NCBI RefSeq assembly: GCF_030013205.1
Contig: NZ_CP122648.1
Reading direction: 5' to 3' (one strand)
DNA length: 64,000 bases
Source of the DNA: Escherichia coli
GTDB taxonomy: Bacteria; Pseudomonadota; Gammaproteobacteria; Enterobacterales; Enterobacteriaceae
In this document: positions 11,317 to 37,079 of the stretch, one piece after another
Position numbering within the stretch: the stretch's first letter is position 1
How the letters are laid out: every line of letters begins with the position of its first letter
The notes under the pieces: model-generated
What the model saw: only the letters and a program-made list of their open reading frames with translations
Told to the model about the DNA's origin: nothing
Database searches by the model: none
Program-made: the position numbers and the translations under genes

Positions 11317-11719
11317 AATCTATTCGCCTTATATATGTCTGGAGGTTTTGAGGATGATGATTAATTATTATCGCCAGAACGAAATGTGCACGAAAAATTG
11401 CTATAAGAATTGTGTCACTTTTATCATTGTGACATGACCAGTTCGTCATTAATCTCATGATCGTTTAAATACTACCGCCAAATCATGCAACGAACTTTGC
11501 TGGATTCAGTTTATGCTGCTGTAAATCCGCTCGCAGTAAACCTTTCAGACGCTCCGTGATGTTATCAGTGGTTCTTTAAGCGTTTTGCTGGTGTACTCAC
11601 TACAAACGAATTGCGAATCGAATCAATGTGAAACGGAAAGGTACAATCTCCCTTTTTTTAGTGTTAACATCGCTAAACCGGGTGGAAGGTGAGAGGTTAA
11701 TGTCTTTCATTTGTGTACC

Positions 11720-19012: not shown

Positions 19013-19025
19013 TCTGATCTAACTA

Positions 19026-19054
19026 AAAAGGCCGCTCTGCGGCCTTTTTTCTTT
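19026..19054 (+). terminator. ihfA terminator hairpin; also the left copy (attL core) of the island-flanking direct repeat
   Basis: aaaaaggccgctctgcggccttttttcttt; the core ggccgctctgcggccttttttcttt recurs near 36016. Confidence 0.75.
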
Positions 19055-19317: not shown

Positions 19318-19458
19318 TTACTGCTTACACTGTAAGAACGCCGCAAACTCCGCTCCCCAGAATCTCATCCGTATTTCGCACAGCGAACCGTGCAACATCC
19401 AGATGATGAGGATTGCCGTCACGCAGAACGTGATGGCCGTAAGCGATTTTTGCGACAT
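19318..19458 (-). CDS. Hok/Gef-family type I toxin (46 aa)
   Basis: MSQKSLTAITFCVTAILIIWMLHGSLCEIRMRFWGAEFAAFLQCKQ: single TM helix then SLCEIR..R....E.AAF signature shared by Hok/Gef/HokA; below the ORF-track size cutoff; coordinates hand-derived. Confidence 0.7.
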   Translation of the reverse strand: MSQKSLTAITFCVTAILIIWMLHGSLCEIRMRFWGAEFAAFLQCKQ

Positions 19459-19612
19459 AGCACTTGCTCCTTTTCCGGAGAGGCGCTAACCTTTCACTTG
19501 TCAAGGTAATGCGGTTAGGGCCTCGGTTAAACAGAAACGTTTTCCGGGGCCTTTCCACATCTGGCCTTCGGGTATTCCCTCCGACCATCAGCCGAAAGGC
19601 ACCCGCGCGCAA
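19325..19612 (-). other. mok-like reading frame fully overlapping the hok-like ORF in another frame (probable translational-coupling frame, not an independent protein)
   Basis: 95-aa track ORF ends 7 nt from the hok-like stop and spans it, the architecture of hok/mok loci. Confidence 0.45.
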
Positions 19613-19648: not shown

Positions 19649-19909
19649 TTAATTTTGAGGTAAGGGCAAACTCATCTGATTGTTTCCTTTGTGTGAAGCT
19701 GGCAGTTCATGCCACGGGATACCTTCTGAAGAGTGAGCGCCGGAGGCGTGTTTCGATGTGAATTTATGGAAAGCTTCCAGTGTTGAGAAGCATACACCGC
19801 ATTCTAGGTTGTTACATTGGTAATACTTTTGCCGCACGGTGTTTGAATCATTTTCCGGACGACTGGTGCGGATTCGGGCAGATGCGCCACAAAGCGGACA
19901 ACGGAACAT
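19649..19909 (-). CDS. ogr: Ogr/Delta-family zinc-finger late-gene activator (P2 Ogr-like)
   Basis: MFRCPLCGASARIRTSRPENDSNTVRQKYYQCNNLECGVCFST...: CxxC ... CxxxxC pattern and spacing of P2 Ogr. Confidence 0.8.
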   Translation of the reverse strand: MFRCPLCGASARIRTSRPENDSNTVRQKYYQCNNLECGVCFSTLEAFHKFTSKHASGAHSSEGIPWHELPASHKGNNQMSLPLPQN

Positions 19910-20119
19910 AGCGACCTCCCTTACTGTGGTGCTTCCGCTATTCTAAGTTGTACTGAAACAGATTCCAATTAACAGCTTGTCTTGTGTGAAAAGTGGAAGT
20001 TCACAATTGTGATAGCCATTACTAACGTTGTGATGTATTAGTCAACGGGAAACAAGGCATCTGTAACATATCTATGGATATGTTATATTATTGTTGCCAT
20101 AGGAAAAATCCGCTTTAAA

Positions 20120-20434
20120 GTGGTTGCTGATCATGAATATTTGTATTGGAAGATAATTGCAATGAGCGAAAGAGTGTTTGAGAAAGAACTATATTCTGAA
20201 TGGGTTATACGCAATAGTCTATATTGGATGACTCCGCTTACTCGATGGAAACTCCATGAAGACGTTTCCCACTGGATAATCTCTTTTGAAAACGATAATC
20301 CCAAATTCCTTTATGAATTCGATAGGCTGCTTAATGATTACTCTTTGCGAGAAAAGCTACAGCATAAAACAGGGGCGTTGAGAGACTCTATTGTCCATAA
20401 AGTGCTTCGCAGTGTTGATGAGAGGCTTTCATAA
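20120..20434 (+). CDS. hxsD: His-Xaa-Ser system protein HxsD (LLNDYxLRE-motif protein)
   Basis: 104-aa ORF containing ...FDRLLNDYSLREKLQHK...; stop overlaps hxsB start (TAATG); true start may be the internal ATG near 20162. Confidence 0.7.
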   Translation: MVADHEYLYWKIIAMSERVFEKELYSEWVIRNSLYWMTPLTRWKLHEDVSHWIISFENDNPKFLYEFDRLLNDYSLREKLQHKTGALRDSIVHKVLRSVDERLS

Positions 20435-21822
20435 TGGAATTGATGCCATTTAATTTTGACAGATTGCCTAATGGACAGGTGTTTATAAGCAACCTTGCAG
20501 GTTTTCATCATTTCATTGGTGAGCAAGACCTTATTGATCTTTCTGATGAGCGAATTAGTTCGGAGCAATCAAACGTGCTAGAAAGTAAGCTTTTCATAAC
20601 CAGTGAAAGCTCATCTGCTATAACTCCCTATGCTTTAAGTTCTGCTTTTGCAAAACGATTGATGAATGAACTGGCTGTCAGGCCAATTTTCATGATTGTA
20701 CCCACATTACGTTGTGACCATACATGCAAGTATTGCCAGGTTAGTAGAGCTTCTGTTAATGCCTCAGGTTACGACCTAAATCCTGAGCTCATCCCCGATA
20801 TTATTTCGGCTATTAAAAAACTATCAACGCCACCTTACAAAATAGAGATACAGGGTGGGGAGCCTCTCTTGCGGTTTGATTTAATTCAGAACATCTATGA
20901 TCAATGTGCTGAAACGCTGGGAAGAACCAATTTTGAGATGGTGGTGGCATCAAGTCTGTCTGTCTTGAATGAGGATATGATTGAATGGTCGAGAGACCGG
21001 AACATAACGTTCTCTGTGTCGCTTGATGGTGAGGAAGTTGTTCACAACAGTAATCGAATTCTTGGTCGTGGGCTTGCGTACAGTAGAACAGTGTCAGGGG
21101 TAGAGGCTATCAAACACTCTTTAGGTGCTGGCCGCGTTGCAACGGTTACTACAGTTACTAAAGAGCTTATCAGACGTCCTGAATCGATTGTTCAGGCTCA
21201 CTTGTCTCTTGGGCTCAAGGACATGTTTATCCGACCTGTTAGTCCCTATGGGTTTGCACAAAAAGCTTCTTTCACCTTTTCTATGGACGAATACTTCAGC
21301 TTCTATGCCTCGTTGATAGATGAAATCCTTAAGATTAATAATGAAGGGATAAGGGTTGTGGAACATTCGGCCTCCATTCATCTGAAAAGGATCTTCAATC
21401 CCGGTTTTAGTGGCTATGCGGATTTAAAGTCTCCAAGTGGAGTCGTGCTTAACAGTATTCTTTTCAATTATGACGGTCGAGTATATGGTAGCGATGAGAG
21501 CCGTATGTTGCAGAAGGTGAATCCTGAAACGGAGTTCAGTGCGGGTGAAGTTAAGACGCTATCATTTTCTGATAGTCCTTACTATAACGCAGTATTGACT
21601 TCATCGTTCAATTTTGCTCTGCCAGGTTGTGATACATGTGCATATCAACCATTTTGTGGTTCAGATCCATGCCAGAACATAAGTGTACAGGGTGAGCCTG
21701 TCGGCGATAGGAGTCGTTCAACGTTTTGTCAATATCACAAGGGGATGTTCAGGTATCTGATGAACTGCATCTCAGAGGGTGGTTCGAAGGCTGAGATGCT
21801 AAAAGGATGGGCATATGTCTGA
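20434..21822 (+). CDS. hxsB: Radical SAM / SPASM-type maturase, first of the pair (HxsB-like)
   Basis: 462 aa; CxxxCxxC in ...PTLRCDHTCKYCQVS...; C-terminal Cys cluster ...LPGCDTCAYQPFCGSDPCQNI...; overlaps the neighbouring genes. Confidence 0.8.
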   Translation: MELMPFNFDRLPNGQVFISNLAGFHHFIGEQDLIDLSDERISSEQSNVLESKLFITSESSSAITPYALSSAFAKRLMNELAVRPIFMIVPTLRCDHTCKYCQVSRASVNASGYDLNPELIPDIISAIKKLSTPPYKIEIQGGEPLLRFDLIQNIYDQCAETLGRTNFEMVVASSLSVLNEDMIEWSRDRNITFSVSLDGEEVVHNSNRILGRGLAYSRTVSGVEAIKHSLGAGRVATVTTVTKELIRRPESIVQAHLSLGLKDMFIRPVSPYGFAQKASFTFSMDEYFSFYASLIDEILKINNEGIRVVEHSASIHLKRIFNPGFSGYADLKSPSGVVLNSILFNYDGRVYGSDESRMLQKVNPETEFSAGEVKTLSFSDSPYYNAVLTSSFNFALPGCDTCAYQPFCGSDPCQNISVQGEPVGDRSRSTFCQYHKGMFRYLMNCISEGGSKAEMLKGWAYV

Positions 21823-22927
21823 GGTTATCAGGAACGATATCTTTCATTTTGCTTCTACAGAGAACGTGCCCACGGGGTTCTATCGGTTATGCAAACAAAA
21901 ACCAGTGAACCCTTTATTCTTTTTGCCCAATTTGCTAGTAGTTGCTGAGGGCAATAATGATGCCATTCCACCATGCTTTGATTTCTCTGTTATTAGCACT
22001 GAATTATTTGAGTCAATTGAAGATGGAGATATTGGGATAATCAACAATGGCAATATGATACGCGTTATTCTGTCACGCAAAGCCAACCATAATACTGTCT
22101 TAGTTACGGAACGCTGCAATAACTTGTGTCTGTTTTGTTCGCAGCCACCAAAGAAAATAAATGATGACTGGCTACTTACCCAATCAGCTCTTGCTATAGC
22201 TTCATTTGGCTTGAACGGAGTTGTTGGGGTCAGCGGTGGTGAACCTTTGCTATATGGGGATGACTTCCTTCACTTCATTGATTTTATCATCGAGAATTCA
22301 CCAGATACTGCTTTACATGTTTTAACAAACGGACGCAAATTTGCTGATACCAACTTTACACAGGAAATGGCAAAGCGAAGCAAAAAGATCAAAATCACCT
22401 TTGGTATCCCGCTCTACTCATCAAGACCACTTGTGCATGATCATCTGGTAGGGAGTGATGGCGCATTTAATGAAACGGTTAAAGGGTTAATCAATGCAGG
22501 AAACTTGGGGATTAATATCGAACTTAGAGTTATTCCTACACTGGCTAACTATACCGAATTGGATGATATCGTAGAATTCGCTGGCCGTGTGTTCTCCAAC
22601 ATCAATCAGATTTCCCTTATGGGGTTGGAGCCTATCGGTTGGGCACGAAAAAACTGGTCCACCATCTTCATTGATCACAGTAGTTATAGTGAGAAAATAA
22701 TCTCTGCCATAGACGCTGCATACAGGTCAGGCATACCTCTGACAATTTTTAATTATCCTTTGTGTTATCTTCCTGAAAGGGCTAGGGAGCTTGCTGTTCA
22801 GTCGATCTCTGATTGGAAAAATTACTATCCAAAAGAATGTGATGAATGTACTCAGAAGCCTTCCTGTGCTGGCTATTTCAGTTCCTCAAAAGGCCGTTTT
22901 CATCAATCACCGAGACCAATTTTATGA
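21815..22927 (+). CDS. hxsC: Radical SAM maturase, second of the pair (HxsC-like)
   Basis: 370 aa; CxxxCxxC in ...VTERCNNLCLFCSQP...; C-terminal Cys-rich ...CDECTQKPSCAGYF...; 8-nt overlap with hxsB, ATGA overlap with hxsA. Confidence 0.8.
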   Translation: MSEVIRNDIFHFASTENVPTGFYRLCKQKPVNPLFFLPNLLVVAEGNNDAIPPCFDFSVISTELFESIEDGDIGIINNGNMIRVILSRKANHNTVLVTERCNNLCLFCSQPPKKINDDWLLTQSALAIASFGLNGVVGVSGGEPLLYGDDFLHFIDFIIENSPDTALHVLTNGRKFADTNFTQEMAKRSKKIKITFGIPLYSSRPLVHDHLVGSDGAFNETVKGLINAGNLGINIELRVIPTLANYTELDDIVEFAGRVFSNINQISLMGLEPIGWARKNWSTIFIDHSSYSEKIISAIDAAYRSGIPLTIFNYPLCYLPERARELAVQSISDWKNYYPKECDECTQKPSCAGYFSSSKGRFHQSPRPIL

Positions 22928-23559
22928 AAAAGTTTAATTTTGCTGCTCTACTTCCGGGATTTTTGGCTCTCAACAATTCTGTATGGGCAAGCGATTCATC
23001 TACAGGAGCGAGTGATTTACCTGGTATGACTCTTAATGAGCATGATTTAGTGATAGCTCCACTTAACACGGAAGTCCCATTTTATATCGCAGGGCATCGA
23101 AGCCATAGTTCTCATAGGAGCCATAGCTCTCATAGATCCTCATCAGGTGGTGGATACTATGGTGGAAGTACCCCCTATTATCCAAAAACATACAGCTCAC
23201 CAAGTTCATCTGGTTCTTCAAGTTCAGGTGCAAGTTCCTCATCGTCCTCTTCCTCGGTGCGTGCACTTCGTTCTAACGATAATAATAGAACCACTAACAC
23301 GAGTTCTGTTGGAACTTCAGAGGTTAACCGTACGAGTAATGGGCTTGCTTCTGATGCAGAGAAACGTAAGCGATTGATTATGCGAGTTCAGTTCGCATTG
23401 CTGGACAGGGGATTTTATAACGGAAATATTGACGGCATAATGGGGCCATCCACAAGGCTGTCTGTGAAAAATTACCGCATTGCGAATGGATTACCGATTC
23501 CTGCAACTGAAACACTCGACGCACAATTGTTAAATTCTTTGAATATATTAGCTCGCTAA
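22924..23559 (+). CDS. hxsA: His-Xaa-Ser repeat protein (HxsA-like), secreted, with peptidoglycan-binding-like C-terminal domain
   Basis: From internal ATG of track ORF 22846..23559: MKKFNFAALLPGFLALNNSVWA (signal peptide), HRSHSSHRSHSSHRS (5 HXS repeats), Ser/Gly-rich linker, C-terminal ...RVQFALLDRGFYNGNIDGIMGPSTRLSVKNYRIANGLPIPATETLDAQLL. Confidence 0.8.
   Translation: MKKFNFAALLPGFLALNNSVWASDSSTGASDLPGMTLNEHDLVIAPLNTEVPFYIAGHRSHSSHRSHSSHRSSSGGGYYGGSTPYYPKTYSSPSSSGSSSSGASSSSSSSSVRALRSNDNNRTTNTSSVGTSEVNRTSNGLASDAEKRKRLIMRVQFALLDRGFYNGNIDGIMGPSTRLSVKNYRIANGLPIPATETLDAQLLNSLNILAR
23097..23135 (+). repeat. Short in-frame tandem DNA repeat encoding the His-Xaa-Ser units
   Basis: agccatagttctcatagg / agccatagctctcataga-like 18-nt units; coordinates approximate. 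Confidence 0.6.
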
Positions 23560-23861
23560 ATCTCAGTGAGGTATAAATAAAAAGCAATAAATTATATTAG
23601 TCGCGCGTCCATTATTGGTGGGTAAGTTCAAGGACCGTCTGCTCTGTGTCAGGGGCAGATGGTCAGATAAGACTGTGCCGTTTAGCCCGCTAGTACGTGT
23701 CTGGACTAATACATTTAAGAGTCTCATTCTGCTATCCATTCCGGGATTTTTGCCTCAAGCTCAAGCTGTGTGGTAAAGCCGCTGTTATCAATGGTGTGCT
23801 CGGCTTTTGCAATAATCCAGTCCTGATTATCAATCTCGCTTTTAAATCCTGTTACCGTGCC

Positions 23862-23899: not shown

Positions 23900-25471
23900 T
23901 TACTGAGAGCTCAGATCAACTTTCCAGGGCAACAGATCGCGTACCCGGTTTGCCGGCCAGTCCTGGATATGTTCAATGACGTAACGCAGCCACTTTTCTG
24001 GCTCCACATTGTTCAGACGGCATGTGCCGATCAGCGAGTACAACACCGCCGCATGTTCACCACCGCTGTCGGAACCCGCGAACATCCAGTTTTTCCGGCC
24101 TACGGCCACTCCCCGTAAGGCGTTCTCTGCGGTGTTGTTGTCGATTTCCACCCAGCCATTACTGCAGTACACGTTCAGTGCATCCCACTGTTTCAGCAGG
24201 TATGCGAACGCTTTTGCCGTATCTGAGTGACGCGACAGTGTTTTCATCTGTTGCTGTATCCAGTCATACAGTGACTGCATCAGTGGCGCGGCTCTGGCTT
24301 TTCTTGCCGCCAGACGCTGTTCTGCTGAACAGCCCCGGACCTCTGCCTCGATGGCATACAGTTCACCGATACGCTGCAGGGCTTCCGTGGTGATGTAGGT
24401 GGGCGCTCTTGCATGCACATCGTGGATTTTTCTCCGGGCATGAGCCATACACGCGGCTTCCGTTATTCTGCCGGATTCGTATAACGCCCGGTAACCACCG
24501 TAAGCATCGGCCTGAAGCACACCGCTGTAACCGGCCAGGTGATTTTGTGGATGGATACCTTTCCGGTCCGGACTGTACGCGAACCAGACCGCCGGGGGCA
24601 TCTGTGAACCGGCGTTACGGTCATCACGGACGTAGACCCACAGCCGGGCTGTCCGGGTTTTACCGCTGCCCGGCTCCTGGACCGGGACGGGGATATCATC
24701 AGCATGGACTTTACCGGGCATCAGCACATACTGGCGCAGGACGTCATACAGCGGCTCCAGCAGTTCAGCAACAGCACCTGTCCAGCGCCCCAGTGTGGCA
24801 CGGCTCAGCTCCACTCCCTGACGACGGTATATTTCTGACTGGCGGTATAACGGCAGATGGTCTGCATATTTCCCGGTGACAACATGGGCCAGAAGCCCCG
24901 CTCCGGCATAACTGCGTGCAATGGGTTTTGAAGGTACTGGTGCCTGTACGATATGGTCGCACCGGCAACAGGCCTGTTTCGGACGTTGTGTTTCGATAAC
25001 CTTAAAGGCGCTGCTGATAAGCTCCAGTTGCTCTGACACATCACATCCCAGAGAACTGAGTTCACCACCACAGGCAGGACAGCATTCCTCTTCCGGCCGG
25101 ATAACCCGGGTTTCACGGGGAAGTGAGGCCGGTAACGGTTTACGGGCTGAAGACTGGCGCAGGGCGGATGGCAGTACCGGGTCATATTGCTCACCCAGCG
25201 TTTCCGCCATTTCTTCCTGAAGTGCGCTGATTCGCTCCTGTGCTTCCTGTATCTGCCGTTCGGTTTTTGCACGAAGTTTTTCTGAGCTTTTACCGAACTG
25301 CATACGTTGCAGTTTCGCAACCAGCGCCTTCAGCCGGTTGATTTCGGAAGCATAAGCCGCCACCCGCTGTGAGAGCAGGCGGTTGTATTCAGCCATCTGG
25401 CGGATGGTGTCCTGTTGCGTCTGCAACAGTGCCCGCAGGCGGGCGTTCTCATGAGCAAGTGAGGTGTCCAT
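23900..25471 (-). CDS. IS66-family transposase TnpC
   Basis: 523 aa with leucine-zipper-like N-terminus, Cys cluster (CPACGG...CRCDH) and C-terminal ...[23 protein letters not shown]... typical of IS66 TnpC. Confidence 0.85.
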
Positions 25472-25490
25472 ATCCTCACTTTACAACGGG

Positions 25491-25838
25491 TTATATGCGG
25501 ATTCCAGCGCGTTCCGTTCGTTTCGGGTGCTTCCAGTTGATACCTTCAAGAAGCATGGATAACTGAGCCGGAGTAAGGTGCACCTTGCCGTCACGGGTGA
25601 CTGGCCAGACGAAGCGGCCCCGCTCCAGGCGTTTGGTGAAGAGGCACAGTCCGTCACTGTCAGCCCACAACACTTTTATCTGGTCACCCCGGCGTCCGCG
25701 GAAGATGAACAGGTGTCCGGAGAACGGGTCATCCTTCAGGACGTTCTGAACTTTTGATGCCAGGCCGTTAAAGCCATTTCGCATATCGGTGATACCTGCA
25801 ACCAGCCAGATACGCGAACCTGCAGGGAGAGATATCAT
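25491..25838 (-). CDS. IS66-family accessory protein TnpB
   Basis: 115 aa, ...RIWLVAGITDMRNGFNGLASKVQNVL... Confidence 0.8.
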   Translation of the reverse strand: MISLPAGSRIWLVAGITDMRNGFNGLASKVQNVLKDDPFSGHLFIFRGRRGDQIKVLWADSDGLCLFTKRLERGRFVWPVTRDGKVHLTPAQLSMLLEGINWKHPKRTERAGIRI

Positions 25839-26515
25839 CAGTGGCTGCTCCCTTTTATTTCGCGGATAAGTGTCTGTAATAACGCCGGCGTCAGTTTACC
25901 TTTAAGCCTGAGAGTTCCGGCCGGCAGAACCAGCTCACAACACAGACTGTCGGACGGTGTATTTATCTGCTCTGGTTCCTGTGCGGGGGCCGGGATTTTA
26001 TTATCCGGCTCCGGCGTTAACGTCACGGGAAGCAGTGCCGGCATATTTTTTCCGGAAGGCAGCAGGCCACCTTTCCGGTATTGATGGCGCCAGTTGAAGA
26101 GCAGGTTATCGTTGATTCCGTTTTCCCGGGCGATCTGCGCCACACAGGCTCCGGGCTGCAGTGACTGCTCCACTAAGGCGATTTTAAACTCATAAGGGAA
26201 GTTGGGCCGCCGGGGACGTTTTTTTACCACGGGGGCTTCGGATATAACGGTGCTTTCAGGACGTACGACTGGTACCGTGGAAAATTGTCCGTAAAGGCAG
26301 GCATCAAGTTCCTGCTCCGACATGCCTGCGGGCAAAGGCCACGAAAGGCCAGCTCTCCGAAAGCGCACGAACATACTACAAACTGTTGATTTTGGTACAC
26401 CCAGGCGACGCCCGGCCACAACCCGGGGTAAATGTTCTTCAAAGTGAAGACGTAAAGCTTCAGTGATCCAGGTCCGGTGTTTCATACGATAGTGTCCATT
26501 AAAAATGATGGACAT
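25838..26515 (-). CDS. IS66-family accessory protein TnpA (start uncertain; track ORF may be over-extended)
   Basis: ...RPRRPNFPYEFKIALVEQSLQPGACVAQIARENGINDNLLFNWRHQYRKGG... Confidence 0.65.
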   Translation of the reverse strand: MSIIFNGHYRMKHRTWITEALRLHFEEHLPRVVAGRRLGVPKSTVCSMFVRFRRAGLSWPLPAGMSEQELDACLYGQFSTVPVVRPESTVISEAPVVKKRPRRPNFPYEFKIALVEQSLQPGACVAQIARENGINDNLLFNWRHQYRKGGLLPSGKNMPALLPVTLTPEPDNKIPAPAQEPEQINTPSDSLCCELVLPAGTLRLKGKLTPALLQTLIREIKGSSH

Positions 26516-26568
26516 TATTTTTGTAGAGCCGGAGGAAACAGACCAGACGGTTTAAATGAGCCGGTTAC

Positions 26569-26576
26569 ATGCATTT
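26569..26576. repeat. Target-site duplication (right copy) of the IS66-family element
   Basis: ATGCATTT. Confidence 0.7.
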
Positions 26577-27266
26577 CGGGGTAGAGTTCTGCACGCCCAC
26601 GTGCCAGCGTGATGGAAAATGATGCGGCTCCGCGTTGTAGCTGCTGCCACTTTGCCGCCGCTGCGCGTCTTGCTGCCTGCTCGTTCTGATAAGTCTTGCG
26701 TAACACAAACACATTGCCTTCCGCACCTTCCATATAATCACCTTCACGGCTGCTGCTTTTCTCCTTTTTAGGTTTTGGTGGTTTGCGGCGTTTCACACTG
26801 ACTTTTTTCTTTTTCCCGTAATTAAGATCAAGCCAGTAAGCGCGTACCCCCGTATACGCTTCGCGGTCAGCAATGCGGAACTGATGGCGATCGCCGCTGT
26901 TGCGCGTGATGGCGAACGATGGCAACGGCTGGCCCTGTGCGTTCACGCCACCGCCTGGCATGATGAATAACAGATTATCGCTTTTTACCGTGGTGATTGC
27001 GCCCAGCATTTCCGCCATGCGCGTAAGGAAGGACATGTCGCTTTCTTCGGTCTGGTCGGCGTGGTCGATTTCGATATCCATCAGCATTTCGCTGATTTGC
27101 GGTTTCAGGCCGTACCGATGAGCGATGGCGGATACCACACGCTCAACGGTCACATCATGCCAGGACACCTCACGTTTAACGTTAAATTCATCCCGAAAAT
27201 CTGCGCTTCTGGCTGAAACAGTCAGCCTGTCCGGCGGTCCTTCGTGAGCGATTTCATCAACAATTA

Positions 27267-30918: not shown

Positions 30919-31482
30919 ATGCTGAATAATAGAGATATGAATATTAATGAACTTAAAGATTGTATTCACTATGAAGTAATCGGTAGCGAGCGTCCTTTCT
31001 CCTGGCGAAAGGCAATTGTTCGCGCAATAAAACATAGAAGAGTTCGTTATTTATTTTGGTGGCGCATAGCCAAATACCTTTTTGATAAAGGCGGATACTG
31101 TCGGAAGATTGCGGGGAAAATAGAACGTTTCATTCTTGATAAATATAATGTAACAGTCCCTTTAACTGTAAATATAGGGAAAGGCTTTGATATTTCTTAT
31201 CTCAACAGTGTTGTTATCGGTCACAAAGTAACAATCGGTGAAAATTGTTCAATAAAACCAGGGGTAACTATTGGGCTGCGTGGTGATTTTAATGATATGG
31301 ATATTGTTATAGGACATAATGTGACCATTGGTTGTAATGCCACCATTCTTGGTGGCAAAGTGCGTATAGGAAACAATGTCACAATAGGTGCTCATGCATT
31401 GGTATTGCATGATATTCCAGATGATTCAACATTCATCACTAAATTTCAGTCTGAAGTTATCTGCTCGTCCTCCCGCACATAA
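30919..31482 (+). CDS. Hexapeptide-repeat (left-handed beta-helix) acetyltransferase, AT-rich cargo gene
   Basis: Repeats of [LIV]-G-x-x-x-x-I-G ([22 protein letters not shown]...[33 protein letters not shown]); low GC; 3' end overlaps tfa 3' end. Confidence 0.75.
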
Positions 31483-32063: not shown

Positions 32064-33724
32064 TATGCAAGCCTCACAATATAATTAAATGCGATGTTTT
32101 TAACGGTGTTTTCCGCGTTACCAGCAGCGTTAACGGTGATGGTGTGTCCATGTGAACCAATCGCAACAGAGTGCGTATGAGCGCCAATACCAACAGTGTG
32201 TGCATGTGCCCCAGCACTTGTAGCGGTACCTGATACTGAGTGGGTATGTGCGCCAGAAGAAGGCACAGTTCCATTCCCCACCACCGTGCCACTTGATGCA
32301 CCATCAAGCCAGTCGAAATTCATACCTCCACTGTTTGGTCTCCTTAATGGAACGGTATGTGTATGTGCGCCAGCACTATTTGCAGTACCAGATACATTGT
32401 GGGTATGTGCACCAGTGTTATTCGTTGATTTAGTACCGTAATCAAACGACGATGTGGTTTTCGTACCCAAATCCGTACTGGATGCGCTGGCACTGTGGGT
32501 GTGCGATTTAATGCCATCCTGTTCCTGAGACAATACGGCCCGACCACTGGCGGGTTTGCCCTTGATTGTCCAGCCGCGCATATCTGGAATAACACCAGAA
32601 GGATAGGCAATAGCCAGTTTCGGATATGCTGCCTTATCAAACGTCTGCCCCTGCATGATTGCATAACCTGCAGGTGGCGTATCTGATGGCCACGGCAGCG
32701 GAACACCTGGCGGAAACGCTTCAATATTTGCCGAGCCGTCAAATTTTACGCCGTTAATTGTCCTTGCCGTTTTCAGCTTTGTTGCTGTAGCAGCATTGCC
32801 GGATAGTTCGCCAGAAAGACCACCGCTGAATGTCTGTTTCGCCGCCCATGTCTGAGCTTCGTCGATAATTGGCACACGTCTTGTCGTAATCGTGCGGCTT
32901 CCCGGATTTCCTGAAATGCGAACCATAAAAAAGCGGTAATTCGCTTTACTTGCAGTGCTGCGCCATACATGCATTGAGCGCCCCGTACCGAAATCATCAC
33001 TCGGACCAACTGCGATGTTTATCAGGTTGCCATCAATGACGCCCCAGTCCATACCGTCGGGAATATTGGTCATGTTATCAAGCCGAACGGTTATCAGACT
33101 GCCCGGCACAAAATCGTAGGTCTGCCAGTCCAGGCTGGTGAGTTTTGCCACTGCGCCACCGATCCCCATATTCAGGGGCAACGAAAAGGAGTTATACACT
33201 TCTCGCCATTCGGTCCATGTGCTCCCGGCGTAGACGCGCTCAAAAGTGCGCCCCTGTGTGGTTTCTGATTTCCCTGTGGTTGTGTAACGCTGCCAGACAG
33301 ATACACCATCAAAACGCCTGATTACTTCCAGTATCCCAAGCAATGTCGCCCCAGCAGCGTCCAGCATCGGACCGTTTGTCGCCTTTCCTGTAACACTGTA
33401 AATACCGGGGTCGGTTAGAACATTCAAATCACCTTCGTAATAACGGCTCTCTGACTGATGACCGACTCTTAACCACGGTTCCCACTGCGGATTTGATGCA
33501 TCCCAGCTTGCCGCAAGGCAGCGAACGTACATATTCCCACGACGAGTGGTATAACGTTGCGTTCTTCCATAATTCCCGCCTTCGAGGATCTCAAGCGTCC
33601 CCTGAGCAAAGCCGCCTTCCTCTGGATAATTGCGTTCATATGAAGCTATAGCCGAGCTACTGTTACGCCATAAACCAAGATGCTCAGCGGCTCCAAGCGT
33701 ATTCAGGTCTATAGTCGTACTCAA
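32063..33724 (-). CDS. Phage tail fibre protein
   Basis: 553 aa; ...[41 protein letters not shown]... and C-terminal His-rich repeats [38 protein letters not shown]. Confidence 0.8.
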
Positions 33725-34000
33725 AGGGCGGGTAGTTCAAGAAGCTGTTCCGGAGCGTTTGTTGATGATCCCGATCTGCATAAAAATATTCTTATTTGCT
33801 ATCCGTATGGTAACTATGAATATGACAATATTATCTATGTTGAAAAGAAAACTAATGCATTGGGCGTTGTTGTGACGTATGCACAGACTGCACGAGACGA
33901 TGCTGAATAAGATACTACAGAGATAGTCCACTTTTTTGTTTATTTGTCGGGATAAAAACAAATTACCCCGACTCACCATGTATTAATCTTCCGCTTTAAG

Positions 34001-34384
34001 TTAGTCTTGTAGCTGCGCTGTCCTGCTATGCAGCAAAGCGGCGTACTTTAATGCGTCCTGTGCTTTCTGGAATTTAAGTGCATAGTCAGTGGCGATTTTT
34101 TCCAGTTCAGCGATTCGGTTGTCTTTGGTTTCCAGCCAATCAAGTAGCGCCAATACTTCAGGATCCCCGACATCCAACACTGTTACGCGTGATTTTTCAT
34201 AATGTTCGTCGGCAAGAGTTCGACCAATTTTGAAATCTCCATCATCACCATAACCGGAGCAGCCATAAACAACCTGTGCTCCAGATATTCGCTGAATTGA
34301 CATTTCTTCGCCGCAAATAGGGCATTTTGGTACTGGTGCAGGTGAATAACGTTCACGTAATGCCTGATAGTTGATTTTGCTCAT
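34001..34384 (-). CDS. Hypothetical phage protein with CxxC zinc-ribbon-like motif
   Basis: 127 aa, ...PVPKCPICGEEMSIQRISGAQVVYGCSGYG...; no family recognised. Confidence 0.4.
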   Translation of the reverse strand: MSKINYQALRERYSPAPVPKCPICGEEMSIQRISGAQVVYGCSGYGDDGDFKIGRTLADEHYEKSRVTVLDVGDPEVLALLDWLETKDNRIAELEKIATDYALKFQKAQDALKYAALLHSRTAQLQD

Positions 34385-34642
34385 TAAGTCGCTCTTCTTG
34401 TTTATGTTCTGAGATGGAGATCAGGGCGAACTCGCCCTGACGTTGTGTTATTCAGGAAATAACGCCCTGATATTTCCGGCCATCTGACTGGTTATCTGTG
34501 CGGTTGGTACTGGCTGTGACAGGGGGCGTTCTGTCCTGGTTTGTGTCACTGATAACGCCTCATCGTCAGCCCATGCAGCCAGTCGGTAAGCCTCTGCCGG
34601 ATTCATTTTCAGAAGTGCCAGCCCGGCCAGAAAAGCCACGCG

Positions 34643-35221
34643 TTGGCCGCTTTTGCGGGCTTCCGGTGTAAGGCTGTCCAGCCAGGCGCATGCTTCGCTT
34701 TCGTTCTTGACGGCCGCAGGCTTCAGATAGAAACTTATCTGAGTAAGTCTGAATGTGTTCAGTTGCTGGATGCACTGGCTGAAAATCCCGATGAACGGCT
34801 GGCTGTCGAAATCCTTCTGTCGACCGGGGCGCGATGGGGCGAGGTAGCGGTACTGGAGCAGCGCCGTGTTCTTCATTGTCGAATCACTTTTTCAAAAACG
34901 AAGAACAGCAAAAACCGTACCGTTCCTATTTCTGAAAGCCTGTTTGAAAAGATCAAAAAACGGGGCGGGAAACTGGTGTTTCCGACGCTGGATTATCCAT
35001 TGGTTCGCGATGTCATCAAAACGGTCGCATCTGATGTTCCTGACGGCCAGGCTGTTCATGCGCTGCGCCACACCTTCGCCAGTCATTTCATGATGAACGG
35101 CGGCAATATTCTGACGCTCCAGAAAATTCTGGGGCACGCAAAGATTCAGACAACGATGATTTATGCCCATCTTGCGCCGGATTACTTGCAGGATGCGGTG
35201 AGATTTAATCCAATAGCTTGA
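34643..35221 (+). pseudogene. int: Tyrosine recombinase (phage integrase) C-terminal catalytic-domain fragment
   Basis: ...LSTGARWGEVA...NRTVPIS...HALRHTFASHFMMNGGNILTLQKILGHAKIQTTMIYAHLAPDYL (R, HxxR, catalytic Y); ~190 codons versus ~330 for full length; N-terminal domain not found in frame. Confidence 0.7.
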
Positions 35222-35231
35222 AGGTAGGAAA

Positions 35232-35615
35232 ATGAAAGATATTGAACATTCAGGGGAAATGGAAAAGAAAAAACGGGAGTTTATTAAAAAACTGGAATCG
35301 ATAACGCCAAGAGAATTCTTCCGTTTTTTAAATGAAAAAAACGTCACTGTGGTTTGCCTTGGGTGCGGACTGAAAGATACCCAGATAACTGCCACTACAG
35401 GTAAGTTAAATCTCCAACAACTCCTGGATGGTGAAAAAGGGGAAGAGTTTATGACGTACTTCAGGCTTGAACCAGGTCACCCAGGTGATAGTGATGCGAA
35501 TTATTACTACAAATCTTTTTGTGAGAACTGCGGTTATATAACTATGCATGCAGTGACTCCGGTATTGAACTGGTTGGGATCGCAAAAAAACCAGGAAGGG
35601 TCAGGTGATGAATGA
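35232..35615 (+). CDS. Hypothetical protein with two CxxC pairs (putative zinc ribbon)
   Basis: 127 aa; ...VVCLGCGLKD... and ...FCENCGYITMH...; start preceded by aggtaggaaaATG. Confidence 0.45.
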   Translation: MKDIEHSGEMEKKKREFIKKLESITPREFFRFLNEKNVTVVCLGCGLKDTQITATTGKLNLQQLLDGEKGEEFMTYFRLEPGHPGDSDANYYYKSFCENCGYITMHAVTPVLNWLGSQKNQEGSGDE

Positions 35616-35907
35616 GTATACTTATATCACGGGTTTTTCCATTCCGTATCCAGGAGGAATTCAGGTGAGCAATCGCAGAAGTCAGGCAAGTCGTGATGAG
35701 TTCGCTCTTGATAGCCGTGTTGCACGAATGGAGTCTGATATCTCATACATCAAGAGAGATATTGAAGAGCTGAAGAGCGATCTCAAGGATGTGAGAGGCG
35801 ATATTGATAAGATACGCACAACAGATTTCAGGCTCATGTTTGGTGCGTTGATTACTACAGCCTTGGGGTTAGCTGGCTTAATGGCGAGAGGTTTTCACTG
35901 GATTTAA
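35605..35907 (+). CDS. Hypothetical coiled-coil protein with C-terminal transmembrane helix
   Basis: 100 aa; ...ESDISYIKRDIEELKSDLKDVRGDIDKIRTTDFRLMFGALITTALGLAGLMARGF; overlaps previous ORF by 11 nt. Confidence 0.45.
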   Translation: MMNEYTYITGFSIPYPGGIQVSNRRSQASRDEFALDSRVARMESDISYIKRDIEELKSDLKDVRGDIDKIRTTDFRLMFGALITTALGLAGLMARGFHWI

Positions 35908-36015
35908 GATCCACAAAGTGACCACATCTCTGTTATTTGTTGTGGTTGGCTGTGTTTTTGTGTGTCTGTAAGTCTTTGATAATTATCTAACTTATTGATT
36001 TTTGTTTGTGTTTAT

Positions 36016-36040
36016 GGCCGCTCTGCGGCCTTTTTTCTTT
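36016..36040 (+). repeat. Right copy (attR core) of the island-flanking direct repeat; doubles as the terminator-like hairpin upstream of btuC
   Basis: ggccgctctgcggccttttttcttt, identical to ~19030-19054. Confidence 0.75.
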
Positions 36041-36098
36041 TCACTGTCGAAGAGTCACCGTAAAATCAACGCCATGACACTTCAGCAGAACGGATACC

Positions 36099-37079
36099 AT
36101 GCTGACACTTGCCCGCCAACAACAGCGACAAAATATTCGCTGGTTATTATGCCTGTCAGTTTTGATGCTGCTGGCGCTTCTCTTAAGCCTTTGCGCCGGT
36201 GAACAATGGATCTCGCCAGGTGACTGGTTTTCTCCTCGAGGCGAACTGTTCGTCTGGCAGATTCGCCTGCCACGTACGCTGGCTGTATTGCTGGTTGGTG
36301 CGGCGTTGGCTATATCCGGCGCTGTAATGCAGGCGTTATTTGAAAATCCTCTGGCAGAACCTGGACTACTTGGCGTCTCTAATGGCGCAGGCGTGGGGCT
36401 TATCGCCGCGGTATTGCTTGGGCAAGGGCAACTCCCCAACTGGGCGCTGGGGCTGTGTGCGATTGCTGGCGCGCTTATCATCACTTTAATACTCTTACGT
36501 TTCGCCCGTCGTCATCTTTCGACCAGTCGGTTATTGCTGGCTGGCGTTGCATTAGGGATTATCTGTAGCGCACTAATGACGTGGGCTATCTACTTTTCCA
36601 CCTCTGTTGATTTACGTCAGCTGATGTACTGGATGATGGGCGGTTTTGGCGGCGTAGACTGGCGGCAAAGCTGGCTGATGCTGGCATTGATCCCCGTGTT
36701 GTTGTGGATCTGTTGTCAGTCCAGACCGATGAATATGTTAGCACTTGGCGAGATCTCGGCGCGGCAACTGGGTTTACCCCTGTGGTTCTGGCGCAATGTG
36801 CTGGTGGCAGCGACCGGCTGGATGGTTGGCGTCAGTGTGGCGTTGGCGGGTGCTATCGGCTTTATTGGTCTGGTGATCCCACATATTCTCCGGTTATGTG
36901 GTTTGACCGATCATCGCGTATTACTTCCCGGCTGCGCGCTGGCAGGGGCGAGCGCATTGCTGCTGGCCGATGTTGTAGCGCGCCTGGCATTAGCTGCTGC
37001 AGAGCTGCCTATTGGCGTGGTCACCGCAACGTTGGGTGCGCCGGTGTTTATCTGGTTATTGTTAAAAGCAGGACGTTAG
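36099..37079 (+). CDS. btuC: Vitamin B12 ABC transporter permease
   Basis: 326 aa, [44 protein letters not shown]... Confidence 0.95.

Follow-up and report, generated by a model that had tools for sequence, protein, structure and literature searches.

Results

The locus and its prophage remnant

We analyzed a 64,000-nucleotide stretch of Escherichia coli DNA (contig NZ_CP122648.1; hereafter the window) and focus on two small, overlapping plus-strand genes at the right end of a prophage remnant. The upstream gene encodes a four-cysteine zinc-ribbon protein (ZnR), and the downstream gene encodes a small membrane protein that is remotely XhlA-like. The pair lies between an integrase fragment and the right attachment site (attR), which sits 108 bp past it. 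In the annotated record, the surrounding island is bounded by ihfA (ending at 19013) and btuC (starting at 36099), and within it lie hok/gef, ogr, the operon hxsDBCA, an element of the IS66 family, tail-gene fragments and the small genes of the right end. The island, of approximately 17 kb, is the heavily decayed remnant of a P88/P2-like prophage of the Xuanwuvirus type that inserted at the ihfA terminator.

This assignment is based on an exact 25-bp direct repeat, GGCCGCTCTGCGGCCTTTTTTCTTT, which is the ihfA rho-independent terminator at 19030 to 19054 (attL core, the left prophage boundary) and which recurs on the plus strand at 36016 to 36040 (attR core) as the terminator duplicated on integration. 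The attR that an earlier sequence-only reading of this DNA had placed here is thus real. The first prophage genes to the right of attL (hok, ogr) begin at 19319. At attR, a terminator-like hairpin, GGCCGCTCTGCGGCC, is followed by a T-run; it is the sole strong terminator 3' of the pair, and the same terminator feature is found 3' of the pair in E. coli TUM9803. Positions 33900 to 36100 of the window match the chromosomes of E. coli K_EC180 and of several porcine enterotoxigenic E. coli (ETEC) strains with 100% identity.

A zinc-ribbon protein and an XhlA-like membrane protein

ZnR (35232 to 35615, plus strand; 127 amino acids) contains two CxxC pairs, CLGC and CENC (C42/C45 and C97/C100), as had been noted from the sequence. 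C42, C45, C97, C100 and W114 do not vary in an alignment of 81 sequences. When 1.84 billion representative proteins were searched with a profile, relatives were identified in 195 clusters, nearly all of them of 95 to 170 amino acids. The AlphaFold model of ZnR (predicted local distance difference test score, pLDDT, of 88) has two N-terminal helices, a small β-sheet bearing both cysteine knuckles and a C-terminal helix. Given that it has neither a signal peptide nor a hydrophobic segment, ZnR is presumably cytoplasmic. No match of ZnR to a defense, structural or regulatory family was obtained in Pfam, NCBIfam or PADLOC, its only PHROG match was phrog_4293, a family of unknown function, and sequence-profile searches of the PDB returned only zinc-ribbon or coiled-coil noise.

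The XhlA-like gene begins at a GTG at 35605 or an ATG at 35608 and ends at 35907 on the plus strand, which results in a protein of 100 or 99 amino acids and in an overlap with ZnR of 11 or 8 nucleotides, respectively, in agreement with the two overlapping open reading frames (ORFs) described earlier between int and attR. Both genes are accompanied by a Shine-Dalgarno-like sequence. The protein has a variable N terminus, followed by five regular heptads (DSRVARM/ESDISYI/KRDIEEL/KSDLKDV/RGDIDKI, residues ~35-70), by FRLMFGALITTALGLAGLM and then by only seven further residues; the hydrophobic stretch covers residues 74 to 92 of 99, with a 19-residue Kyte-Doolittle mean of 1.64. These features bear out the coiled coil and the C-terminal transmembrane segment attributed to the 100-residue protein, and they correspond to the architecture of XhlA (PF10779), a coiled coil with a single C-terminal transmembrane helix. 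An AlphaFold 2 run returned a long helix and then a second helix for the XhlA-like half, at low confidence.

Relatives of the XhlA-like protein strengthen the comparison. A match to PF10779 at E ≤ 1e-3 was found for 29 of 65 relatives (best 7.9e-7), and a word-indexed search recovered 541 relatives at E ≤ 1e-3, several of which carry the NCBI name "hemolysin XhlA family protein" or precomputed PF10779 matches. XhlA-like proteins without ZnR reach Yersinia, Hafnia, Providencia, Photorhabdus, Caballeronia, Nitrosomonas and Azonexus. As judged from these profile comparisons, the membrane protein of the window appears to be a remote, peripheral XhlA-like protein rather than a certified member of PF10779. 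The sequence-only reading recognized no family for either member of the pair; this still holds for ZnR, but not for the membrane protein.

The pair is a conserved two-gene cassette

For the analysis of linkage, the ORF sets of 112 fetched loci (identified here by numbers beginning with L) were compared with hidden Markov models (HMMs) of the ZnR and XhlA-like families. In nearly all of the 45 distinct ZnR loci with downstream DNA, an XhlA-like ORF is located directly 3' of ZnR; the exceptions are contig ends and two loci (L044, L045) in which a tail-anchored ORF is present downstream and was missed by the HMM. Pairwise ratios of nonsynonymous to synonymous divergence against homologues from other genera are 0.09-0.21 for ZnR and 0.12-0.23 for the XhlA-like gene, and these low values identify both as genuine, constrained genes. 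In the window, both are intact and under purifying selection. The 90% cluster of ZnR comprises 532 contigs, E. albertii included, and more remote homologues come from Salmonella, Serratia, Raoultella, Klebsiella, Enterobacter, Citrobacter, Pectobacterium and Aeromonas.

The cassette occupies immunity or moron positions in every context examined: after cI, in or after C-int, or after an antirepressor in the tail region. Among P2/186-like elements there are two arrangements. The order C (helix-turn-helix)-int-ZnR-XhlA-attR is shared by Serratia, Raoultella and E. coli TUM9803, in the last of which it lies at the same btuC site; the TUM9803 prophage looks intact, and the part examined is its lysogeny/early end. 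The order C-(Flk_N-like)-ZnR-XhlA-int is found in Aeromonas, Pectobacterium and metagenomic elements. In one locus (L028), start/stop overlaps continue straight into int. In P2, C and int make up the lysogenic Pc operon, and the pair is therefore embedded in, or appended to, that operon.

In lambdoid phages (homologous pairs in L005, L029-L034 and L106) the order is cI (S24)-ZnR-XhlA; in Enterobacter phage ENT1 and related contigs, a gap of 30 bp follows cI. This slot is the one that rexAB takes in λ, with rexA after cI. In SPN3UB-like siphoviruses of Salmonella, Klebsiella and Enterobacter, the genes are arranged as major tail-(Arc/Mnt)-antirepressor-ZnR-XhlA-small lipoproteins-tape measure, where the antirepressor beside the pair is of the Ant/KilA-N type; this slot is an immI-like moron cluster. 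In phages P88 and P88_4B11, which have no pair, the interval from hok to int is filled by other genes. The pair in the window is one copy of a conserved, mobile two-gene cassette of temperate phages, and we consider it very probable that this is a lysogeny-linked accessory cassette.

The upstream partner of the XhlA-like gene is not constant. In lambdoid prophages of Enterobacter, an XhlA-like gene follows cI behind a protein of 141 amino acids (L019-L021, 4574-4999) or 134 amino acids (L035, 3478-3882). BLASTP showed no relationship of these two proteins to ZnR or to one another, and they gave no match in Pfam, NCBIfam or PADLOC. In a Caballeronia prophage, cI is followed by an XhlA-like gene that stands alone. 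The occurrence of XhlA-like genes after cI with two unrelated partners, or alone, suggests a constant membrane component with swappable upstream partners.

Further genes accompany the cassette in some phages. The lysogenic operon of a Pectobacterium 186-like prophage (L114, 3181-8043) is crowded with accessory genes and has the order CI-ZnR-XhlA-Flk_N-Abi_alpha-int-PIN_12, in which the Abi_alpha protein corresponds to the PADLOC candidate PDC-S47 (E=1.9e-60) and the PIN_12 protein is encoded 3' of int. A protein of ~200-270 amino acids recurs beside the pair in P2/186-like operons (L007, 5188-5991; L044, 3030-3659; L045; L048; L114, 4347-4949). Precomputed annotations list Flk_N matches for it, although two members that we compared with Pfam gave no match at E ≤ 0.01. 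In the Aeromonas protein, the C terminus includes a hydrophobic stretch. This Flk_N-like neighbor may be a third component in those P2/186-like phages. One lambdoid contig (L106, 3560-3901) encodes a DUF3024 protein (E=1.2e-28) between cI and ZnR.

A comparison of window positions 34763 to 35907 with TUM9803 (L016, 8466-10124) yielded a synonymous divergence of 0.67 for the integrase fragment and of 0.12-0.18 for the two downstream genes. This difference suggests that recombination has separated the history of int from that of the pair, with a breakpoint between them. We also considered a role of the pair as recombination directionality factor, which we reject because the pair is located far from any integrase in the lambdoid and SPN3UB-like phages.

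Deletion debris upstream of the pair

To the left of the pair, the window contains three genes of ordinary phage families, all of them deletion debris. We mapped an internal deletion by blastn of the window against E. coli W13-16 (O139:H1; L002), which carries at the same btuC site the order ead (truncated)-parR-parM-replication endonuclease-72-amino-acid ORF, followed by int (310 amino acids), the genes of 127 and 99 amino acids, and btuC. Window positions 33347 to 34739 align with L002 1-1393, and positions 34736 to 36500 align with L002 6001-7765. The junction at 34736 to 34739 thus marks an internal deletion of 4,607 bp with a 4-bp microhomology, TATC, by which approximately 7 parR codons, parM, a replication gene, the 72-amino-acid ORF and integrase codons 1-149 were lost. 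This one 4.6-kb deletion fused a ParR-like fragment to integrase codon 150; it accounts for the truncation of the integrase and for its juxtaposition with the minus-strand ORF discussed below. To the left of 34739, DNA identity to the Xuanwuvirus phages P88 and P88_4B11 is 94-96%, and the gene order in Xuanwuvirus is replication protein-ParM-ParR-Ead-like-cos.

The tyrosine-integrase fragment (34736 to 35221 on the plus strand, within an ORF of 34643 to 35221) comprises codons 150-310 of 310 (Pfam Phage_integrase, E=2.2e-19) and shares 99% identity with the integrase of W13-16 over residues 159-310 of the latter. It retains the catalytic domain with TGAR...HALRH...LGH...IYAH, in line with the R/HxxR/Y residues and the missing N-terminal half described previously. 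The N-terminal core/arm-binding domain (residues 1-149) and the promoter are gone, so that the fragment is no longer a working integrase.

A ParR-like (Plasmid_stab_B) partition gene at 34448 to 34762 on the minus strand, between the minus-strand ORF and the integrase fragment, was absent from the sequence-only reading (Pfam Plasmid_stab_B, E=2e-23; phrog_2515, "partition protein", E=1.4e-52). It has lost approximately 7 native first codons, its annotated start is formed by integrase-derived sequence, which makes it chimeric, and its partner parM is deleted. In integrating P88-like phages, a plasmid-type ParM/ParR partition pair precedes the Ead-like gene at the cos end (L015, 35087-36362; L002, 1102-2377).

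The minus-strand ORF at 34001 to 34384 (127 amino acids; native homology at 34013 to 34384) is a C-terminally truncated Ead/Ea22-like pseudogene (Pfam Ead_Ea22, E=3.3e-29). Its score of 102.7 bits against a PF13935 cut-off of 27 identifies it as a family member. Residues 1-124 align at 97% identity with the same residues of gp56 (196 amino acids) of Xuanwuvirus P88_4B11, and the match ends there; the C-terminal third is missing, and the annotation of the Prokaryotic Genome Annotation Pipeline (PGAP) reads "missing C-terminus". Its cysteines form one CxxC (CPICGEE), with a GCSG further on. The earlier description of a 127-residue CxxC protein on the minus strand was correct as to position and motif, but this is neither a whole gene nor part of an exclusion module. 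Homology to ordinary phage proteins, which had been named in advance as evidence against such a module, was found for this ORF. We also reject the view that it forms one system with the pair: the two come from opposite ends of the phage map and were brought together by the deletion.

The families to which these three ORFs belong (Ead/Ea22-like, PF13935; ParR/StbB, PF10784; tyrosine integrases, PF00589) are matched with strong scores and are supported also by PHROGs, but in each case the window holds a fragment that arose by deletion. All ORFs named by the sequence-only reading are present where it had placed them; the Ead-like, ParR-like and integrase ORFs are ordinary debris, and the pair is an uncharacterized accessory cassette that is clearly real. 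We hold the anatomy of the locus as described here with high confidence.

In the sibling porcine ETEC strains ETEC4068 and ETEC4075, another deletion retained parM-parR, removed int and ZnR and left only the last 41 bp of the XhlA-like gene. In ETEC4068 (L116, 3401-4007), the 3' part of the replication endonuclease gene is fused to these 41 bp, which marks an independent deletion. The locus is undergoing erosion in several ways.

Discussion

Few sources of exclusion and abortive-infection systems are as rich as the repressor-operon genes of temperate phages, of which rexAB, sieB, glo and stk are examples. We tentatively propose that the ZnR/XhlA-like pair is a lysogen-expressed, membrane-acting superinfection-exclusion or abortive-infection module; we favor this over other functions while rating it slightly below an even chance. 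The cassette would be expressed in lysogens together with the immunity repressor. The XhlA-like protein would be the membrane effector, which may oligomerize through its coiled coil and perturb or gate the inner membrane, and ZnR would be its cytoplasmic partner, which may keep the XhlA-like protein inactive or sense an incoming phage. Alternative upstream partners could control or trigger the XhlA-like protein in place of ZnR. The outcome would be exclusion or abortive infection of incoming phages. The sequence-only reading had guessed at an exclusion, abortive-infection or toxin-antitoxin module; for the pair, a guess of this type is consistent with position and linkage, but the minus-strand ORF has no part in it.

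The closest parallel in organization is λ RexA/RexB. RexB is a four-helix membrane protein, and RexA has about 279 amino acids. In ENT1 and Enterobacter prophages, the homologous pairs likewise consist of two co-oriented genes directly 3' of cI, which encode one cytoplasmic and one membrane protein, and the proposed logic of a cytoplasmic sensor and a membrane effector is shared. By contrast, no similarity of sequence or fold was detected, the XhlA-like protein has a single tail anchor, ZnR has only 127 amino acids, and the pair in the window follows int rather than cI. Searches with PADLOC, Pfam and NCBIfam found no RexA or RexB homology.

P22 SieA, HK97 gp15 and K139 Glo are membrane-associated superinfection-exclusion products. 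Exclusion in the Pseudomonas phage Fc02 is mediated by small overlapping genes that are transcribed together with the repressor (PMC9936078). SieA of the P22 immI region, gp15, Glo and Fc02 olg1 resemble the pair in that they are short, membrane-associated products, expressed from the prophage and encoded beside immunity regions or between tail genes. They differ from it in the lack of homology and in being mostly single proteins that block DNA entry, whereas the cassette is an obligate-looking pair with a cytoplasmic, putatively zinc-binding partner.

The positions of the cassette in P2-related prophages coincide with published defense hotspots. In K139/ΦO18P-like relatives of P2, the hotspot is the interval between cI and int, which contains known defense systems (PMC9122126), and the int-att interval of P2 accounts for 3% of P2 defense systems (2026 preprint, 10.64898/2026.02.27.708500). 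The pair lies exactly in these intervals, in the former as C-pair-int in Aeromonas and Pectobacterium and in the latter as int-pair-att in E. coli, Serratia and Raoultella, and the window copy and its relatives thus have the location of hotspot cargo. The cargo at these sites is variable and includes defense genes, as is evident from P88-type phages without the pair, from Abi_alpha/PDC-S47 and PIN_12 in Pectobacterium and from the Flk_N-like gene in Aeromonas. The texts of these two publications contain no mention of XhlA or zinc proteins, and in our literature search no paper was found that mentions the protein accessions or PHROG identifiers of the pair.

Several observations weigh against an exclusion or abortive-infection function. 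PADLOC (v2.0.0, 2023) gave no significant match for the five window proteins and their relatives, only noise from coiled-coil matches (E~4e-3) to "CorA-like", LmuB and DruC, and NCBIfam gave no match for ZnR or for the XhlA-like protein. With 18.4 bits (E=2.4e-3) against a cut-off of 34.7, the window protein does not reach the Pfam gathering threshold of PF10779. AlphaFold modeling of a ZnR-(GGGGS)6-XhlA fusion, with a paired alignment of 22 rows, gave a pLDDT of <50 for the XhlA half and provided no support for a complex. The pair is rare, being present in 16 of 5,426 complete E. coli genomes, every time at btuC, and it was dispensable in the sibling ETEC lineage that deleted it. If the pair in the tail region is co-transcribed with the antirepressor, it would be expressed early in infection and not in lysogens. 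The attachment of the cassette to immunity regions would fit a regulatory role equally well. Finally, the window copy has no recognizable promoter of its own, which leads to a different reading of its present state.

This reading, on which we consider the evidence evenly balanced, is that the pair is inert in this strain, a promoterless relic in the process of being lost that is intact only because the deletion is recent. Since it concerns present activity, it is compatible with an exclusion or abortive-infection function of the family at large. C, Pc and the 5' half of int were lost with the deletion, and a consensus scan found no sigma-70-like promoter on the plus strand at 34300 to 35232, a stretch that includes the interval from the junction to the pair; the same scan, which was run also on SPN3UB and TUM9803, is blind to weak or non-sigma-70 promoters and to read-through. 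The window copy is therefore probably silent or only weakly transcribed. The proteins of the pair have the same accessions as in W13-16, in which int is full-length, and this identity indicates that the deletion is recent and that there was no time for decay. ETEC4068 and ETEC4075 lost int and the pair by another deletion, and the rest of the prophage is full of deletions and carries an IS66 insertion. On the other hand, the limits of the scan leave room for transcription from sites of the kinds that it cannot detect, and both ORFs are intact, as are their Shine-Dalgarno sequences and the terminator that follows.

We further considered, as a rather doubtful extension of the exclusion hypothesis, that XhlA-like proteins are the shared membrane effector of an unrecognized, widespread family of prophage immunity-operon modules with interchangeable partners, a new type of anti-phage system in the niche of rexAB. 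In lambdoid and P2/186-like phages of Proteobacteria, such modules would share a transcript with the cI or C repressor, and the partner, whether ZnR, one of the two unrelated proteins of ~135-140 amino acids or none, would set the invading phage or signal by which disruption of the membrane is triggered.

An unlikely alternative function is that of a toxin-antitoxin or addiction module that stabilizes the prophage, with the XhlA-like protein as a holin-like or Hok-like toxin and ZnR as its antitoxin. The architecture is that of type II systems, two small genes of which the upstream overlaps the downstream by 4-11 nucleotides in the window and its relatives, but this resemblance is architectural only, and neither Pfam nor NCBIfam revealed similarity to toxin-antitoxin families. 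Partners are exchangeable upstream of the constant membrane protein; in Caballeronia, however, the XhlA-like gene stands after cI without a partner, and a lone toxin would be hard to tolerate. The pair is situated at one prophage end, and hok/gef at the other end of the same remnant. An integrated prophage would nevertheless gain little from post-segregational killing, and a position inside the C-int operon is atypical for autoregulated toxin-antitoxin pairs.

Similarly improbable in our view is a role in which the pair modulates the lysis-lysogeny switch, the induction or the immunity of its own phage, for example, by membrane tethering or titration of a repressor or antirepressor. All contexts are immunity regions, be it after cI, inside C-int or after the Ant/KilA-N antirepressor, and there is a precedent in the proposal that λ RexA/RexB influence the CI/Cro switch and assist the lysogenic-to-lytic transition (bioRxiv 10.1101/2021.04.19.439022). 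Specific contact with a repressor is difficult to reconcile with a cassette that moves among unrelated immunity systems (S24 cI, P2 C, Arc/Mnt-Ant), and most related phages, P88 and P88_4B11 among them, are without the cassette, which points to an accessory role and not to core regulation.

A function as lysis accessory, with ZnR as regulator, is very unlikely. It would build on the remote XhlA similarity, on weak PHROG matches to "hemolysin", spanin and holin families, and on Bacillus PBSX, in which the membrane protein XhlA works with the holin XhlB, both being needed for lysis (PMC5589764). PBSX XhlA indeed resembles the XhlA-like protein: both are small, phage-encoded and built of a cytoplasmic coiled coil at the N terminus and one membrane anchor at the C terminus. 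The gene xhlA of PBSX, however, belongs to a late lysis cassette with the holin gene xhlB and the amidase gene xlyA, whereas the XhlA-like gene described here resides with ZnR in lysogeny/immunity operons of phages of Gram-negative bacteria. No context examined was a late lysis cassette, in none of the loci was the pair adjacent to a holin, endolysin or spanin gene, the P88-type lysis cassette is elsewhere in the genome, and repressor and integrase genes have the same orientation as the pair and are linked to it in translation.

The XhlA of Xenorhabdus is an unrelated two-partner-secretion hemolysin. We regard a function of the pair as hemolysin or virulence factor as an annotation artifact with next to no probability, given that it draws on nothing but the database name "Haemolysin XhlA", for which the Pfam description takes the function from the large secreted Xenorhabdus protein, and on the interpretation of an XhlA-domain gene beside cI as a hemolysin in λ-like phages of Mannheimia by Niu et al. 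(PMC4553209), and given that the window protein is a 99-residue tail-anchored protein without signal peptide whose distribution tracks phage immunity regions and not pathogens.

As a possible exclusion or abortive-infection module, the pair is a compact and readily cloned candidate of ~680 bp that occurs in three unrelated immunity contexts and at two published P2-family defense hotspots, and it is absent from PADLOC, the one defense catalogue checked. If it is active, it would extend the role of XhlA-type proteins from lysis cassettes of Gram-positive phages to prophage defense in Gram-negative bacteria. The present classification also corrects a misleading "hemolysin" label, which has already led to speculation about virulence. 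For the window itself, most small genes are fragments that result from a single mapped deletion, and the intact pair is probably not expressed from its native promoter.

Additional observations in the window

Inside the remnant, a complete hxsDBCA operon at 20163 to 23560 encodes a His-Xaa-Ser repeat peptide and two radical-SAM maturases. It adjoins ogr (19650 to 19910) and hok/gef (19319 to 19459) and takes up the cargo slot on the ogr side of a P2-like phage. The IS66-family element (ISCro1: tnpA, tnpB, transposase; 23901 to 27226) abuts a 236-amino-acid fragment of a gpD-like "VgrG/Pvc8 family" tail gene, and a tape-measure gene near ISCro1 is without its N terminus, a further sign of stepwise prophage decay. 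Among the tail genes, an ORF at 30919 to 31482, on the strand opposite to the tail-fiber assembly gene, encodes a hexapeptide-repeat "transferase" of 187 amino acids; this is probably another moron, and perhaps an acetyltransferase. Outside the island, ghoS (type V antitoxin) is annotated at 6727 to 7017 with no neighboring ghoT in the feature table, and an espL1 type III effector gene is located at 9419 to 11317 between yniD and thrS.

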